NCBI RefSeq assembly: GCF_054482595.1
Contig: NZ_CM137008.1
Length of the DNA stretch: 64,000 nt
Reading direction: 5' to 3' (one strand)
A model generated the notes under the pieces. The model was given only the letters and a program-made list of their open reading frames with translations. It was not told the origin of the DNA and did no database searches. Shown piece after piece: positions 49,802 to 60,379 of the stretch. Numbering within the stretch: the first letter of the stretch is position 1; every line of letters starts with the position of its first letter. Both the position numbers and the translations under genes were made by a program.

Positions 49802-50935
49802 ATGAAAAGCAAAGTACTGGCACTTTTAATTCCTGCCCTGCTCGCCGCAGGTGCTGCACATGCAGCCGAAGTTTATAATAAAGACGGCAACAAATTAGAT
49901 CTGTATGGCAAAGTTGATGGCCTGCATTATTTTTCTGATAATTCAGCGAAAGATGGCGACCAGAGCTATGCGCGTCTGGGTTTTAAAGGCGAAACCCAAA
50001 TTAACGATCAACTTACTGGCTACGGTCAATGGGAATACAATATTCAGGCAAACAACACTGAATCTTCAAAAAACCAGTCATGGACCCGTCTGGCATTTGC
50101 CGGACTGAAATTTGCAGATTACGGTTCTTTCGATTACGGACGTAATTATGGCGTAATGTACGACATCGAAGGCTGGACCGATATGCTGCCTGAATTTGGC
50201 GGTGACTCTTATACCAATGCAGACAACTTTATGACTGGTCGAGCCAATGGCGTCGCGACTTATCGTAATACTGATTTCTTCGGTCTGGTAAATGGTCTGA
50301 ACTTCGCGGTGCAGTATCAAGGTAACAACGAAGGAGCCAGTAATGGTCAGGAAGGCACCAACAACGGACGTGATGTTCGCCATGAAAACGGTGACGGCTG
50401 GGGTCTTTCCACAACATATGATTTAGGCATGGGCTTTAGCGCTGGTGCGGCATACACATCTTCTGACCGCACCAATGACCAGGTTAACCATACTGCGGCG
50501 GGTGGTGATAAAGCAGACGCGTGGACTGCTGGGCTAAAATACGATGCTAACAATATTTACCTGGCAACCATGTATTCAGAAACGCGTAATATGACCCCGT
50601 TTGGCGACAGCGATTATGCTGTTGCAAACAAAACCCAGAACTTTGAAGTCACTGCACAGTACCAGTTTGATTTTGGTCTGCGTCCGGCAGTCTCTTTCCT
50701 GATGTCTAAAGGCCGTGACCTGCACGCTGCCGGTGGTGCAGACAACCCGGCAGGTGTTGATGATAAAGATCTGGTTAAATACGCCGATGTTGGCGCGACT
50801 TACTATTTCAATAAAAACATGTCCACCTATGTTGACTATAAAATCAACCTGTTGGATGAAGATGACAGTTTCTACGCTGCCAACGGCATCTCTACCGATG
50901 ATATTGTCGCTTTAGGTCTGGTTTATCAGTTCTAA
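49802..50935 (+). CDS. ompN: Outer membrane porin OmpN (OmpC/F family)
   Basis: 377-aa ORF with signal peptide [21 protein letters not shown] and C-terminal ...GLVYQF. Confidence 0.9.
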
Positions 50936-50943
50936 ATCCTCCT

Positions 50944-50967
50944 GCCCGCTGTTATGGCGGGCTTTTT
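50944..50967 (+). terminator. Intrinsic terminator of ompN
   Basis: gcccgc-tgttatg-gcgggc followed by T5, 9 nt after stop. Confidence 0.6.
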
Positions 50968-50994
50968 CTGCTTATTCTTCCTCCTTTGATCTAA

Positions 50995-51510
<516 letters not shown>

Positions 51511-51517
51511 CACTAAC

Positions 51518-51542
51518 GCCCGCACATTGCTGCGGGCTTTTT
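51518..51542 (+). terminator. Intrinsic terminator of uspF
   Basis: gcccgca-cattgc-tgcgggc followed by T5. Confidence 0.6.
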
Positions 51543-51685
51543 GATTCATTTCGCAAATGTGCTGACATTTTCCCCTCTAATCCGTACCATACACGCCACA
51601 GTTTTTATATCAGATTTCTTATGCTGGGCGTTCCGGCATGACGCATACTCTTCTGATGCCATATAACGAATTGAGTCGCTTTTAA

Positions 51686-52621
51686 ATGTCGCAAAATCAA
51701 GAAATTAGCAAGAAAGAACAATACAACCTGAACAAATTACAAAAACGCCTGCGTCGTAACGTGGGCGAAGCCATTGCTGACTTCAATATGATTGAAGAAG
51801 GCGATCGCATCATGGTTTGCCTCTCCGGGGGTAAAGACAGCTATACCATGCTGGAGATTCTGCGCAATTTGCAGCAAAGCGCGCCAATCAATTTTTCGCT
51901 GGTGGCTGTTAACCTCGATCAAAAGCAACCGGGCTTCCCGGAACACGTTCTGCCCGAGTATCTTGAAAAGCTGGGCGTTGAGTACAAGATTGTTGAAGAG
52001 AACACTTACGGTATCGTGAAAGAGAAGATTCCAGAGGGCAAAACCACTTGCTCACTGTGTTCTCGGCTACGTCGCGGTATCCTTTATCGCACCGCAACGG
52101 AACTGGGGGCGACGAAGATCGCGTTGGGCCACCATCGTGACGATATCCTGCAAACGTTGTTCTTAAATATGTTCTACGGCGGCAAGATGAAAGGTATGCC
52201 TCCGAAACTGATGAGCGATGATGGCAAACATATTGTTATTCGTCCGCTGGCCTACTGCCGCGAGAAAGATATTCAGCGATTTGCCGATGCAAAAGCGTTC
52301 CCGATTATTCCGTGCAACCTGTGCGGTTCACAGCCTAACCTGCAACGTCAGGTGATTGCTGACATGTTGCGTGACTGGGATAAACGTTATCCAGGGCGTA
52401 TCGAGACGATGTTCAGCGCGATGCAGAATGTGGTGCCGTCACATCTGTGCGATACCAACCTGTTCGATTTCAAAGGCATCACCCACGGTTCTGAAGTGGT
52501 TAACGGGGGTGATCTGGCGTTTGATCGCGAAGAGATCCCACTACAACCGGCGGGCTGGCAGCCAGAAGAAGATGAAAATCAGTTGGATGAGTTACGGCTG
52601 AATGTGGTTGAAGTGAAATAA
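51686..52621 (+). CDS. ttcA: tRNA 2-thiocytidine(32) synthetase TtcA, full length
   Basis: 311-aa ORF with PP-loop SGGKDS and CxxC pairs. Confidence 0.95.
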
Positions 52622-52631
52622 CCAGGATAGC

Positions 52632-52701
52632 GCCCGATGCGCAAGCGTATCGGGCTACTCTTATGGAGGCCGGATAAGACGCGGCCAGCGTCGCATCCGG
52701 C
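52632..52701. repeat. REP/BIME-like element (two palindromic units) between ttcA and dbpA
   Basis: gcccgatgcgcaagcgtatcgggc and gccggataagacgcggccagcgtcgcatccggc, typical REP palindromic units. Confidence 0.6.
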
Positions 52702-52749
52702 AATCCCGAATAAGATGTTTACTCTTGCACCCGGCAATTCAACATTTCA

Positions 52750-54123
52750 TTATTTTAATAACCGCACCCGGCACGTTTTTCCTTTAATCTTCCCGCCCTG
52801 TAACTGTTTCCATGCTTTATGAGCAACAGCCTGACGGACCGCGACATAGACATGCGCCGGATGCACGGCGATTTTGCCTATATCTGCGCCATCAAGCCCG
52901 ATATCTCCTGTCAGTGCACCTAATACATCACCCGGGCGCATTTTGGCTTTTTTCCCGCCATCGATACACAACGTTGCCATTTCTGCTTCCAGCGTCACAA
53001 TGGAACTATTAGCTGGCGGCGTTTGCCAGTTAAGTTTTATCTGCAACATGTCAGAAATGATATTGGCCCGCTGTGCTTCTTCCGGAGCACAGAAACTGAT
53101 CGCCAGACCGCTATTTCCTGCACGAGCTGTACGACCGATGCGATGTACATGAACTTCAGGGTCCCACGCCAGCTCAAAGTTCACCACCAGCTCAAGCGAT
53201 TTAATATCCAGACCACGCGCAGCAACATCAGTCGCGACCAGTACACGGGCGCTACCGTTAGCAAAACGTACCAGGGTCTGATCGCGATCGCGTTGCTCCA
53301 AATCGCCGTGTAATGACAATGCACTTTGCCCTACTTCATTCAGCGCGTCGCAGACAGCCTGGCAATCTTTTTTGGTATTGCAAAACACCACGCAAGAGGA
53401 TGGCTGATGCAAGCTTAATAACCGTTGCAACAGAGGAATTTTGCCTTTACTGGATGTCTCATAAAATTGTTGTTCAATGGGTGGCAAAGCATCTGTTGAG
53501 TCAATTTCAATCGCCAAAGGATCGCGTTGCACTCGTCCGCTGATTGCGGCGATGGCTTCCGGCCAGGTTGCCGAAAACAGAAGCGTCTGTCGAGATGCAG
53601 GCGCAAAACGGATGACATCATCAATGGCATCGCTAAATCCCATATCCAGCATGCGGTCGGCCTCATCCATCACCAAAGTATTCAGCGCATCCAGTGATAC
53701 CGTGCCTTTTTGCAGGTGATCCAGCAAACGGCCCGGCGTTGCCACGATAATATGCGGCGCATGTTGCAACGAATCACGCTGCATACCGAACGGTTGACCA
53801 CCGCACAACGTCAAAATTTTGGTATTTGGCAGAAAACGCGCCAGCCGACGCAATTCACCTGCCACCTGATCCGCCAGTTCACGCGTAGGACACAGCACTA
53901 AAGCCTGGGTTTGAAATAGCGACGCATCAATTTGCTGTAACAAGCCGAGGCCAAAAGCCGCCGTTTTGCCGCTGCCAGTTTTCGCCTGCACGCGAACATC
54001 TTTTCCGGCAAGGATCGCCGGAAGCGCGGCGGCCTGCACCGGCGTCATGGTTAAATAACCCAACTCATTAAGGTTCGTGAGTTGGGCGGGAGGCAAAACA
54101 TTCAGGGTAGAAAAAGCGGTCAC
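52750..54123 (-). CDS. dbpA: ATP-dependent 23S rRNA-specific DEAD-box RNA helicase DbpA (GTG start)
   Basis: 457-aa ORF with Walker A AKTGSGKTAAF and DEAD motif VMDEADRMLD. Confidence 0.95.
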   Translation of the reverse strand: MTAFSTLNVLPPAQLTNLNELGYLTMTPVQAAALPAILAGKDVRVQAKTGSGKTAAFGLGLLQQIDASLFQTQALVLCPTRELADQVAGELRRLARFLPNTKILTLCGGQPFGMQRDSLQHAPHIIVATPGRLLDHLQKGTVSLDALNTLVMDEADRMLDMGFSDAIDDVIRFAPASRQTLLFSATWPEAIAAISGRVQRDPLAIEIDSTDALPPIEQQFYETSSKGKIPLLQRLLSLHQPSSCVVFCNTKKDCQAVCDALNEVGQSALSLHGDLEQRDRDQTLVRFANGSARVLVATDVAARGLDIKSLELVVNFELAWDPEVHVHRIGRTARAGNSGLAISFCAPEEAQRANIISDMLQIKLNWQTPPANSSIVTLEAEMATLCIDGGKKAKMRPGDVLGALTGDIGLDGADIGKIAVHPAHVYVAVRQAVAHKAWKQLQGGKIKGKTCRVRLLK

Positions 54124-54155
54124 AATCTATTCTCGTGGTCATCGACGCAAAGTCA

Positions 54156-54326
54156 TCAGGCGCGTATCCTCGCAGATCTACGCTCACGATGCGACAATTT
54201 AATCGGTTCTTCATCGGGTGGTGGGTCAGGCATGGGTTGCGGGCGAGGGATCGGATCGGGCACTGGAACAGGATCGCCAGGAATCGGTTCAGGGACAGGA
54301 ATTTGCAAATAAATAAGTATCGTCAT
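54156..54326 (-). CDS. Hypothetical proline-rich small protein (56 aa) immediately upstream of dbpA; not in ORF track
   Basis: ATG at 54326 preceded by GGAGGG 5 nt upstream; MTILIYLQIPVPEPIPGDPVPVPDPIPRPQPMPDPPPDEEPIKLSHRERRSARIRA; stop 32 nt before dbpA start. Confidence 0.3.
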   Translation of the reverse strand: MTILIYLQIPVPEPIPGDPVPVPDPIPRPQPMPDPPPDEEPIKLSHRERRSARIRA

Positions 54327-54382
54327 ATTTCCCTCCGGTCATTGGGTGGACTCTTAAAGGGTAGACGCTGATAAATAACAGG

Positions 54383-54505
54383 CAAAAAAAAGCCGACTCA
54401 TCAAAGTCGGCGTCGTACGAATCAATTGTGCTATGCAGTAATTCAAAAAAGGAAGTAAGACAATATGGAGCGCAACGCCCATCGCTTGACGTTGCATTCA
54501 CCTGC
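54383..54505 (-). ncRNA. fnrS: FnrS small RNA (FNR-activated)
   Basis: Minus strand reads GCAGGTGAATGCAACGTCAAGCGATGGGCGTTGCGCTCC...GCCGACTTTGATGAGTCGGCTTTTTTTT, matching FnrS as I remember it; terminator hairpin 54392-54411 plus U8. Confidence 0.8.
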
Positions 54506-54540
54506 AAGAGAGATATTGCCCTGAATGGGTAGAGAGTTTA

Positions 54541-54554
54541 TTGACTTCGCTCAA
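54541..54554 (-). promoter_or_regulatory. Candidate FNR binding site centred about -41.5 of fnrS
   Basis: Minus strand TTGAGCGAAGTCAA (consensus TTGAT-N4-ATCAA, 2 mismatches) 35 nt upstream of candidate -10 CAATAT. Confidence 0.55.
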
Positions 54555-54600
54555 ACTTTGCGGCGTTTTTGTATACAGACAGCCGGAAAAATTGCTTTTG

Positions 54601-55605
<1,005 letters not shown>

Positions 55606-55838
55606 TTATTTTGTAGTCTAGCCTTCTGGCCCTGTTACGCAACATCTCATCACCCCATTACCCTGAAATGATTAATAAAATTCTGTCTAAATTGAATACA
55701 AAAAGCAAAATGCTTTTCCGTATACAAACCGTGTGAAGTGTTAAATAGCGTCTATCATTATCAGAATTATCTGATCATATGACGTGGCTTTTTTGCGATC
55801 GGATAGCAACAAAAATTGATAAAAATAATGGGATCTCA

Positions 55839-57071
55839 ATGATTACGCACAACTTCAATACCCTGGACTTACTCACCAGTCCTGTCTGGATCGTTTCGCC
55901 CTTTGAGGAACAGTTAATTTATGCCAATAGCGCGGCGCGACTGTTGATGCAAGACCTCACGTTTAGTCAGCTACGAACCGGTCCCTATTCCGTCTCCTCA
56001 CAAAAAGAACTGCCGAAATACCTCTCCGATCTGCAAAACCAACACGATATTATCGAAATCCTCACTGTTCAGCGTAAAGAAGAGGAAACAGCATTAAGCT
56101 GTCGGCTTGTTTTGCGAGAGCTGACAGAAACAGAACCGGTGATTATTTTCGAAGGTATCGAAGCGCCGGCAACGCTGGGTTTAAAAGCCAGTCGCTCAGC
56201 AAATTATCAGCGCAAAAAACAAGGTTTTTATGCGCGCTTTTTTCTGACTAACTCTGCACCAATGTTGTTGATTGACCCGTCACGAGATGGCCAAATCGTC
56301 GATGCTAACCTCGCCGCGCTCAATTTCTATGGTTATAACCATGAAACGATGTGCCAGAAACATACCTGGGAAATAAATATGCTCGGGCGTCGCGTCATGC
56401 CTATCATGCATGAAATTTCGCATTTACCCGGCGGTCATAAACCTTTGAATTTTGTTCATAAACTGGCGGATGGATCTACTCGTCATGTGCAGACCTATGC
56501 CGGACCGATTGAAATTTATGGCGACAAGCTCATGTTATGTATTGTGCATGATATTACTGAGCAAAAACGGCTGGAGGAGCAGCTGGAACATGCTGCTCAC
56601 CATGACGCGATGACCGGATTACTGAATCGGCGACAGTTTTATCACATTACGGAACCAGGCCAAATGCAGCATCTCGCCATCGCTCAGGATTACAGCTTGT
56701 TGCTCATCGACACCGATCGTTTTAAACACATTAACGATCTCTATGGGCATTCTAAAGGTGATGAGGTGTTATGCGCCCTCGCCCGCACCCTCGAAAGTTG
56801 CGCTCGCAAAGGCGATTTGGTGTTTCGTTGGGGAGGCGAAGAGTTTGTCTTATTGCTACCAAGAACCCCACTGGATACCGCGCTTTCGCTGGCTGAAACT
56901 ATCCGCGTAAGCGTGGCAAAAGTGAGTATTTCGGGCTTACCACGCTTTACCGTCAGCATTGGTGTGGCGCATCACGAAGGAAATGAAAGCATCGATGAAC
57001 TGTTTAAACGCGTTGATGATGCTTTGTATCGGGCGAAAAATGATGGACGCAACCGCGTGCTGGCGGCATAA
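55839..57071 (+). CDS. dgcM: Diguanylate cyclase DgcM (PAS-PAS-GGDEF)
   Basis: Track ORF trimmed to MITHNFNTLDLLTSPVW... (410 aa); GGEEF active-site motif (RWGGEEFVLLL). Confidence 0.85.
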   Translation: MITHNFNTLDLLTSPVWIVSPFEEQLIYANSAARLLMQDLTFSQLRTGPYSVSSQKELPKYLSDLQNQHDIIEILTVQRKEEETALSCRLVLRELTETEPVIIFEGIEAPATLGLKASRSANYQRKKQGFYARFFLTNSAPMLLIDPSRDGQIVDANLAALNFYGYNHETMCQKHTWEINMLGRRVMPIMHEISHLPGGHKPLNFVHKLADGSTRHVQTYAGPIEIYGDKLMLCIVHDITEQKRLEEQLEHAAHHDAMTGLLNRRQFYHITEPGQMQHLAIAQDYSLLLIDTDRFKHINDLYGHSKGDEVLCALARTLESCARKGDLVFRWGGEEFVLLLPRTPLDTALSLAETIRVSVAKVSISGLPRFTVSIGVAHHEGNESIDELFKRVDDALYRAKNDGRNRVLAA

Positions 57072-57091
57072 GCCGCGGATGCGTCTCGAGA

Positions 57092-57655
57092 TCAACGACT
57101 GCGCTTAGCGTGGCGCTCCCAGTTTTCTTGCTTCGCCTGCGCCGTTTTACGTAGTGCGACGTAACACGCCCCGCTGCCGCCATGATGCGGTAGCGCGGTG
57201 CAATATGCCTGAACATCATCAAATTCGGTCAGCCAGCGCGCCACATAGCTGCGGACAATATTGGCATGCGATTTATCATCCCGCCCTTTACCATGAATAA
57301 TCAGCACGTTACGCAAACCATCCGCCAGGGCTTGTTGAATAAAACTGAACACCATTTTGCGGCACTCTTCCACCGGCTGGCGCAAAAGATTCAGGCTCGC
57401 CTGTTGCGGATATTTACCACTGCGCAGCTTATCCAGCACCCCATGTTGCAACCCTTCCCGCCGAAACTCCAGCGGCTGACTTAGTGGGATAATGTCGAGA
57501 AATCCGGTAGTGAGGAAATTATCAAGCTGCAGCGTGTCGATACGCTGTGGCGCACGTTGGTTACGCGTGGGATGCCAGTGGACATCGGTAGCACGTTTCA
57601 GCGGCTGGACATCTTCCATGGCGTCAAGAAACAGCGATTTGTCGTCAAGGTTCAT
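57092..57655 (-). CDS. smrA: Smr-domain DNA endonuclease SmrA
   Basis: 187-aa ORF with C-terminal Smr domain. Confidence 0.85.
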   Translation of the reverse strand: MNLDDKSLFLDAMEDVQPLKRATDVHWHPTRNQRAPQRIDTLQLDNFLTTGFLDIIPLSQPLEFRREGLQHGVLDKLRSGKYPQQASLNLLRQPVEECRKMVFSFIQQALADGLRNVLIIHGKGRDDKSHANIVRSYVARWLTEFDDVQAYCTALPHHGGSGACYVALRKTAQAKQENWERHAKRSR

Positions 57656-57881
57656 GTTACATCCTCCCGCAATTAAGAGCGCGATATGATAACCAGACCG
57701 GGTCGGTCCAACAACGTATTACCCAAAATTCCAGTAATAAGTTCCAAATGTTGCCGATATTTTAAGCAAAATGCTTATGCATGATTATTCATTCACGATA
57801 TTAATAATGTAACTTATATTTTCGTGAAATCTGTCACTGAAGAAAATTGGCAACTAAAGGTTAAAACCGTTATAACACAGT

Positions 57882-57976
57882 CACCGGCGCAGAGGAGACA
57901 ATGCCGGATTTAAGACGCGGATGCACTGCTGTGTGTACTATAGAGTCTGGCGGATGTCGACAGACTCTATTTTTTT
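57882..57976 (+). ncRNA. mcaS: McaS (IsrA) small RNA
   Basis: sigma70-like promoter TTGGCA-N18-TATAAC (57846-57875), transcript ACCGGCGCAGAGGAGACAATGCCGG...TAGAGTCTGGCGGATGTCGACAGACTCTA plus T7; matches McaS as I remember it. Confidence 0.75.
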
Positions 57977-57984
57977 ATGCAGTT

Positions 57985-58893
57985 TTAACTTTGCAGATAG
58001 CCGCATTCTCGCCGGAATTGCGTGATTAATGACGCGGTCAGTGGTGTCTGGCGACTATCACGCCGCTGAATCAAATAATAGGCCGCTTTCGGTAAAATTT
58101 CGCTAACCGGCAACATCACCAGCCCCTGTCCGTGCAAGGGATCGCAGCCCATTTCTTCAGGCAGTATGCTGAGAAAATCGCTTTTTGCCACCAGACTGAT
58201 ACAGGCTGAGAACGTCTCGCAGACTACACCGACCTGTGGCGTTTGCGCCTGATCGTCAAGCAATTCACTCAACTGTTTGTAGTAGCTGCCGTGTGGCGTC
58301 GGCATTGTCCAGCTGTAATCCAGTAACTGTTTGATCGAACGGGCACCAATGGCGGGGTGTCCCGGGCGGCAAAAGATCGCGAATTGCTTTTCCAGTAATT
58401 TCTCAAAAGTAAATTCGTGGTCGTACGATCCCTGATAATAGGTATTGATGGTGAAATCCAATTCTCCCTGACGCAATTCATTAATCATCGACACCAGTTG
58501 CCCTTCCATAATGCGTACTTTTACCTGCGGATGCTGCTGATGAAAACGAGATATGACAGCTGGCATCAGACTGCGGGAAATACTGGCCCCCATGCCGATA
58601 TTAATCTGCCCTGCCAGTTGCCCTTGTCGTTGGCGAATATCCTCTTGGGCTGCGCGCAGCTCTTCAAGAATAAGACTGGCGTGCTGATAAAAACTTTCAC
58701 CGGCATCAGTTAACGTCACGCCTTTACTACGGCGAAAAAAGAGTTGCGCCGCTAACCCTTCTTCCAGCTCCTGAATAGATTTACTCAGTGCCGGTTGCGA
58801 CATATTCAACATTCGGCTCGCTCCGCGAATGCTGCCCTGACGAGCCACTTCAACAAAAGCCCGAATTTGATGAATTTTTACCTGAAAAGCCAT
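57985..58893 (-). CDS. abgR: LysR-family regulator AbgR
   Basis: 302-aa ORF with N-terminal HTH (GSIRGASRMLNMSQPALSKSIQELE). Confidence 0.9.
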   Translation of the reverse strand: MAFQVKIHQIRAFVEVARQGSIRGASRMLNMSQPALSKSIQELEEGLAAQLFFRRSKGVTLTDAGESFYQHASLILEELRAAQEDIRQRQGQLAGQINIGMGASISRSLMPAVISRFHQQHPQVKVRIMEGQLVSMINELRQGELDFTINTYYQGSYDHEFTFEKLLEKQFAIFCRPGHPAIGARSIKQLLDYSWTMPTPHGSYYKQLSELLDDQAQTPQVGVVCETFSACISLVAKSDFLSILPEEMGCDPLHGQGLVMLPVSEILPKAAYYLIQRRDSRQTPLTASLITQFRRECGYLQS

Positions 58894-59068
58894 GACGCCA
58901 CCGATAACCGTTATTTATCAGACCAAAGAAACTGGCATCTACTTTAATGCAGATGATTGTGTCAGGGTAATTTATGAACGGTTAAAACTGTGAAAAATCA
59001 GTTAGTGATAAGTAAAAACTATCGCTACGTGAACCGGGTCACACTTTTTACTGATGACGGGAAAGGTT

Positions 59069-60379
59069 ATGGAGTATTTGAATCAATTTGTTAATTCGCT
59101 TGCCCCAAAATTATCGCACTGGCGACGTGATTTTCATCACTATGCAGAGTCTGGCTGGGTGGAATTCCGCACTGCCACCCTTGTTGCGGAAGAATTGCAG
59201 CAGCTCGGCTATTCACTGGCGCTGGGCCGCGAAGTAGTTAATGAAAGTAGCCGGATGGGACTACCTGATGAACTCACTCTACAACGCGAATTCGAGCGCG
59301 CTCGTCAACAGGGTGCGCTAGCACAATGGATTGCGGCTTTTGAAGGTGGTTTCACTGGTATCGTCGCCACCCTGGATACCGGTCGCCCCGGTCCGGTGAT
59401 GGCTTTCCGTGTCGATATGGACGCGCTGGATCTCAGTGAAGAGCAGGATGTCAGCCATCGCCCCTACCGCGACGGTTTTGTGTCATGTAACGCCGGAATG
59501 ATGCATGCCTGTGGTCATGATGGGCATACCGCCATTGGGCTTGGGCTGGCGCATACCCTTAAACAGTTCGAGTCCGGACTACATGGCATCATCAAACTGA
59601 TTTTTCAACCTGCAGAAGAAGGTACGCGTGGCGCGCGGGCGATGGTCGATGCAGGTGTAGTGGATGATGTTGATTATTTTACTGCCGTGCACATTGGCAC
59701 TGGCGTACCTGCGGGCACCGTGGTGTGCGGCAGTGATAATTTTATGGCAACCACCAAATTTGACGCGCACTTCACCGGGACCGCCGCTCACGCAGGCGCA
59801 AAACCAGAAGACGGTCACAATGCCTTGTTGGCGGCAGCACAAGCAACTCTTGCACTGCATGCAATCGCCCCGCACAGCGAAGGCGCTTCCAGAGTAAACG
59901 TGGGCGTTATGCAGGCAGGAAGCGGTCGTAATGTTGTTCCTGCCTCGGCGTTGCTGAAAGTGGAAACACGCGGGGCCAGCGACGTCATTAATCAATATGT
60001 TTTTGACCGTGCACAACAAGCGATTCAGGGCGCAGCAACCATGTATGGTGTCGGCGTTGAAATTCGTCTGATGGGTGCAGCTACCGCCAGTTCTCCTTCG
60101 CCGCAATGGGTCGCATGGTTGCAAAGTCAGGCGGCTCAGGTCGCGAGGGTCAATCAGGCCATTGAACGTGTCGAAGCGCCTGCGGGTTCCGAAGATGCCA
60201 CATTAATGATGGCCCGCGTGCAGCAACATCAAGGGCAAGCCTCCTACATGGTGTTTGGCACACAGCTGGCGGCAGGTCATCACAACGAAAAATTCGATTT
60301 TGACGAGCAGGTTCTCGCTATTGCCGTCGAAACGCTGGCGCGCACCGCGCTCAATTTTCCCTGGACGCGAGGTATCTGA
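59069..60379 (+). CDS. abgA: p-Aminobenzoyl-glutamate hydrolase subunit A (M20 peptidase family)
   Basis: Track ORF trimmed to MEYLNQFVNSLAPKLSHWRRDFHH... (436 aa). Confidence 0.85.
   Translation: MEYLNQFVNSLAPKLSHWRRDFHHYAESGWVEFRTATLVAEELQQLGYSLALGREVVNESSRMGLPDELTLQREFERARQQGALAQWIAAFEGGFTGIVATLDTGRPGPVMAFRVDMDALDLSEEQDVSHRPYRDGFVSCNAGMMHACGHDGHTAIGLGLAHTLKQFESGLHGIIKLIFQPAEEGTRGARAMVDAGVVDDVDYFTAVHIGTGVPAGTVVCGSDNFMATTKFDAHFTGTAAHAGAKPEDGHNALLAAAQATLALHAIAPHSEGASRVNVGVMQAGSGRNVVPASALLKVETRGASDVINQYVFDRAQQAIQGAATMYGVGVEIRLMGAATASSPSPQWVAWLQSQAAQVARVNQAIERVEAPAGSEDATLMMARVQQHQGQASYMVFGTQLAAGHHNEKFDFDEQVLAIAVETLARTALNFPWTRGI

Follow-up and report, generated by a model that had tools for sequence, protein, structure and literature searches.

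FnrS is a textbook Hfq-dependent small RNA (sRNA) through which the FNR regulon comes to include genes that are repressed under anaerobiosis, and its discovery is reportedly owed to Durand and Storz and to Boysen and colleagues, both in 2010. At class II FNR-activated promoters, the FNR site overlaps the -35 position and is typically centered near -41.5. Among described systems, RyhB and OxyS, two Hfq-dependent stress sRNAs of E. coli, act in the same way as FnrS: a regulator controls the promoter, the transcript ends at an intrinsic terminator with a U tail, and the RNA pairs with its targets at ribosome-binding sites. FnrS differs from both in that its signal is anaerobiosis through FNR and in that its sequence is unrelated to theirs. 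Oxygen limitation induces FnrS, whose targets sodA, sodB, and marA are common to RyhB, as is the isc operon (PMC8595263). The OxyS target iscR is likewise a target of FnrS, which is under FNR control, is produced when cells switch to anaerobic growth, and pairs with the 5′ region of iscR in a manner improved by Hfq (PMC11572966). Through FnrS, FNR also regulates 11 operons indirectly, among them gpmA, cydDC, chaA, and adhP (PMC3688515).

The DNA analyzed here is a stretch of 64,000 nucleotides (the window). It is nearly certain that the segment downstream of zntB is the known, well-characterized E. coli FnrS gene with an FNR-dependent promoter and a terminator of its own.

Identity and anatomy of the gene

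The first-pass annotation had recognized FnrS in this stretch and called for an alignment to the K-12 gene. When aligned base by base, the minus strand from 54505 to 54384 (122 nt) is identical to fnrS of K-12 MG1655 (b4699) at 122/122 positions, a match far beyond the chance level, and the proposed identity is thereby upheld. An Rfam 15 scan of positions 50000-60000 places RF01796 (FnrS; spelled ‘frnS’ in Rfam) at 54388-54505(-), covering model positions 1-119 of 119 with E = 6.9e-25. The score of 134.8 bits is more than twice the gathering score of 60, which assigns the RNA to the family. The identity to K-12 MG1655 holds at every base from the 3′ end of zntB to 40 nt past the terminator, promoter included. 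The K-12 record carries the ncRNA fnrS at 1409129..1409250, between zntB and ynaL/dbpA, and this feature projects onto 54505..54384 of the window. The gene is orthologous to the experimentally defined K-12 fnrS, and a feature identical to that of K-12 is already known.

Numbering of the RNA from +1 = 54505, where the sequence begins GCAGGTGAATGC..., was checked against published mutant alleles. These are fnrS-III (G4C, G5U), fnrS-II (C47A, U48A, U49G), and fnrS-I (U57A, U58G, U59A) (PMC8595263). All of the altered residues, those of the pairing mutants among them, are present in the FnrS of the window at their stated positions, and moving the +1 by one base either way breaks the agreement at G4 and G5. 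The features of the locus, all on the minus strand, are as follows, with the basis of each assignment.

54601..55584, minus strand: zntB (context), on the same strand and upstream of fnrS; its stop TAA (54603..54601) lies 95 nt before the fnrS +1
54541..54554, minus strand: FNR binding site TTGAGCGAAGTCAA, -49 to -36, center -42.5; match to TTGAT-N4-ATCAA, conserved offset, and a published FNR ChIP-seq peak
54513..54518, minus strand: -10 hexamer CAATAT, -13 to -8; position, with the second-position A and the last T at least 95% conserved in 119 orthologues
54384..54505, minus strand: fnrS gene for the 122-nt FnrS sRNA, +1 at G54505 and 3′ end at the last U of U8 (54384); RF01796, K-12 b4699 identity, and mutant-allele numbering
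54471..54496, minus strand: stem-loop 1 (nt 10-35), a 9-bp stem with loop AAGCGAUG; Rfam alignment and folds
54445..54459, minus strand: C/U-rich single-stranded CUUACUUCCUUUUUU (nt 47-61), an anti-Shine-Dalgarno-like pairing region; unpaired in the minimum-free-energy (MFE) and alignment folds
54419..54444, minus strand: stem-loop 2 (nt 62-87), whose sequence varies among genera; Rfam alignment, folds, and conservation
54384..54411, minus strand: intrinsic terminator, an 8-bp G+C-rich hairpin (54411..54392) followed by U8 (54391..54384); terminator scan and compensatory changes

The first-pass span of 54383-54554 holds these promoter and gene elements, though its start at 54383 is one base beyond the U-run.

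The single-sequence fold, the Rfam alignment, and the alignment fold show three hairpins, one of them the intrinsic terminator, and an unpaired C/U-rich stretch. In the alignment fold of the orthologues, stem-loop 1 and the terminator appear together with the tip of stem-loop 2. Since the stability of the whole-RNA fold is little above that of shuffles (z = -1.67), structural support is taken from the Rfam covariance model and from covariation in the terminator. The unpaired stretch at nt 47-61 is complementary to purine-rich ribosome-binding sites, is at least 80% conserved in the orthologues, and contains the residues altered in the pairing mutants fnrS-I and fnrS-II (PMC8595263).

The gene order zntB - fnrS - ynaL - dbpA is the same in the window, in O157:H7, and in K-12, so that fnrS keeps its position between zntB (ydaN) and dbpA. 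ynaL (54156-54326, minus strand) encodes a 56-amino-acid proline-rich small protein and starts 57 nt past the FnrS U-run. The only nearby differences from K-12 are two bases downstream of the terminator, a G for A in the Shine-Dalgarno region of ynaL and a change of its codon 3 from Thr to Ile. The sRNA McaS/IsrA is found at 57883-57978 on the plus strand (RF00115, 117.4 bits against a gathering score of 42), adjoining abgR and 3.4 kb from fnrS, as in K-12. In the RefSeq records inspected (NZ_CP033605.1 among them), no feature is annotated under the fnrS sequence, and the ncRNA appears only in the K-12 record.

Within the species the locus is widespread. Of 5426 complete E. coli genomes, 5393 contain a 401-bp stretch, and many carry it at 100% identity. 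A match to the 171-bp promoter-plus-gene segment occurs in 5392 of the 5426, and in 5015 the identity reaches at least 99%. The remaining 34 genomes give no match to the 171-bp feature, and six matches lie on records labeled as plasmid. In E. coli 2012C-4227 (NZ_CP013029.1; L123, 151-328), the 3′ arm of stem-loop 1 carries a 7-bp tandem duplication, GCGTTGC, and there is also a CT-to-TC change at -5/-4.

Promoter geometry and conservation of the FNR box

A pair of FNR half-sites upstream of fnrS had been noted in the first pass, and the site is indeed there. The inverted repeat TTGAGCGAAGTCAA at 54554..54541(-) agrees with the consensus at 8 of 10 positions and lies under a published FNR ChIP-seq peak (PMC3688515). 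The center of the box had been put at about -41.5; it measures -42.5 from the annotated +1, which is the value listed for fnrS by Myers et al. 2013 in their Table 1, where the ydhY site is also given as -42.5 (PMC3688515).

The fnrS promoter is like class II FNR promoters in its 8/10 match to TTGAT-N4-ATCAA, in the overlap of the site with the -35 position, and in its usual class II spacing, with 29.5 bp separating the center of the box from the first base of the -10 hexamer. It differs in that transcription starts 7 nt, not 6 nt, after the -10 hexamer. Because the same 29.5 bp separate box and hexamer in a canonical -41.5 promoter (hexamer at -12..-7), the difference between -42.5 and -41.5 resides only in the start position after the -10 element. 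A -35 consensus is absent because the FNR box overlaps that position, in keeping with the class II layout. A simple consensus scan found no complete sigma-70 promoter at fnrS, as is expected for an activator-dependent promoter that has no -35 element.

The number of such boxes in the window was rejected as evidence, since TTGA-N6-TCAA occurs three times against 1.49 expected, and 17 of 100 shuffles reach three. The weight of the box derives from its position and conservation, not from its sequence alone. To follow it across Enterobacterales, orthologues were collected from species-representative genomes by one exact-pattern scan with 20 fixed bases of stem-loop 1, which yielded 120 loci. The genera include Escherichia, Citrobacter, Enterobacter, Pantoea, Erwinia, Serratia, Yersinia, Pectobacterium, Dickeya, Edwardsiella, Photorhabdus, Arsenophonus, and others. 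In each of the 119 distinct sequences that had full flanks, the 110 nt upstream were searched for the best match to an FNR box. This match falls at exactly the offset seen in the window in 114 of the 119 loci, with 8 or 9 of the 10 consensus positions matched, and the background for a match of at least 8/10 is 7.6e-4 per position.

The TTGA and TCAA cores and nt 1-58 of FnrS are conserved in the 119 orthologues, while stem-loop 2 and the terminator are variable in sequence, and the 3′ half has insertions and deletions among genera. Stem-loop 1 is nearly invariant, partly by construction of the search pattern. This invariance was discounted as evidence, the pattern having fixed 20 of its bases.

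The terminator, zntB, and alternative readings

The terminator hairpin reads GCCGACTT-TGAT-GAGTCGGC and is followed by exactly eight T. Its base pairs show compensatory changes among the orthologues: pair 99-110 is A-U, G-C, or G-U; pair 100-109 is C-G or U-A; and pair 101-108 occurs as six pair types. In the K-12 annotation, the final U of the U8 is the 3′ end of fnrS, and the hairpin is therefore the FnrS terminator.

The same hairpin could be read simply as the terminator of zntB, the sequence before it as the zntB 3′ UTR, and any sRNA as a product of zntB mRNA processing that has no promoter of its own. The surroundings of the gene lend this reading some plausibility. In the 189 nt (minus strand) between the zntB stop at 54601 and the hairpin, no other terminator was found, bar a weak hit inside stem-loop 1, and the zntB-fnrS spacer holds no stable structure, folding less well than 192 of 200 shuffles (z = +1.61). 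Furthermore, of the 120 loci from other genera, nearly all have zntB as the immediate upstream neighbor in the same orientation, and the distance from the end of the zntB coding match to the fnrS +1 is usually fixed at ~98 nt. However, the 95-nt spacer of the window contains TTGAGCGAAGTCAA and CAATAT on the minus strand, a position-conserved FNR box and a -10 element directly upstream of a conserved +1, and it is at this site that the FNR ChIP-seq peak is reported (PMC3688515). Six loci, Rahnella and Rouxiella among them (L044, L063, L069, L100, L107, and L116), also speak against it. In these, a local rearrangement leaves zntB convergent with fnrS and ~150 nt downstream of its +1, yet fnrS keeps the FNR box, the -10 element, and the hairpin with U8-U9. 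Because the terminator stays with fnrS where there is no upstream zntB, it belongs to fnrS in its own right, and we judge an origin exclusively from zntB to be very improbable.

A coding function for the region fares even worse. The mechanical list of open reading frames contains a frame of 47 codons at 54354..54497(-), and its ATG at 54497 (FnrS nt 9) directly follows AGGTGA (AGGUGA in the RNA), a Shine-Dalgarno-like element, as a small-protein gene might. There is essentially no spacer between this element and the ATG, the start codon itself falls within stem-loop 1, and the frame runs through the terminator, such that the 122-nt RNA contains no stop codon for it. The region is conserved in the manner of an RNA, with covariation in stems, a conserved unpaired stretch, and a 3′ half in which genera differ by insertions and deletions. 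The frame was rejected as a gene because it passes through the terminator, and it is almost certainly meaningless; that the region encodes a small protein has a next to negligible probability.

An FnrS gene with its own promoter and terminator is compatible with a terminator that zntB shares, and only the version in which the hairpin serves zntB exclusively is a rival to it. The first-pass annotation had held that the hairpin and U8 look like a zntB terminator and are instead that of FnrS. The part concerning FnrS agrees with the K-12 3′ end, whereas the exclusion of zntB is probably a false choice. With no second terminator between the zntB stop and the hairpin, the hairpin is most likely where zntB transcripts end too, and with its U8 it probably serves as a terminator for both genes. 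Full-text literature searches on fnrS with zntB or ydaN turned up a Yersinia sRNA catalogue and a codon-usage paper, neither with direct evidence for or against, and no paper that addresses read-through or a shared zntB-fnrS terminator. In Yersinia pestis, a ~120-nt transcript has been mapped downstream of zntB (PMC3672283).

Predicted function and the linkage to zntB

FNR occupancy, anaerobic induction, Hfq dependence, and targets are known from the literature on the identical K-12 sequence and by that identity probably extend to the present strain. In the absence of oxygen, dimeric [4Fe-4S] FNR would bind TTGAG-N4-GTCAA over the -35 position in the class II manner, centered at -42.5, and would recruit sigma-70 RNA polymerase to the weak -10 element CAATAT. 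Transcription from G54505 to the hairpin-U8 terminator would then yield the 122-nt RNA. Its 3′ hairpin with a U tail and its U-rich internal stretch are the usual features of Hfq binding and may serve as such here. The 5′ end of FnrS and nt 47-61 are predicted to pair with the ribosome-binding regions of mRNAs that are unneeded anaerobically, such as sodB, sodA, gpmA, cydDC, marA, and iscR, and thereby to block their translation. Among the genes of the window, none was identified as a known FnrS target.

For annotation, the apparently empty 274-bp gap between zntB and ynaL actually contains a characterized regulator, and the survey across genera documents how rigidly the offset of the FNR box is kept. 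Termination of zntB transcripts at the FnrS hairpin raises a further, tentative possibility, which we consider rather unlikely. In that case the 3′ UTR of the zntB mRNA would comprise all of FnrS up to and including its terminator. Processing of this mRNA might then supply FnrS independently of FNR, as a second route, or the mRNA might act as an Hfq-bound carrier or sponge. If this were true, the near-universal linkage of zntB and fnrS at a fixed spacing across Enterobacterales would represent a functional coupling of the two genes and not mere synteny.
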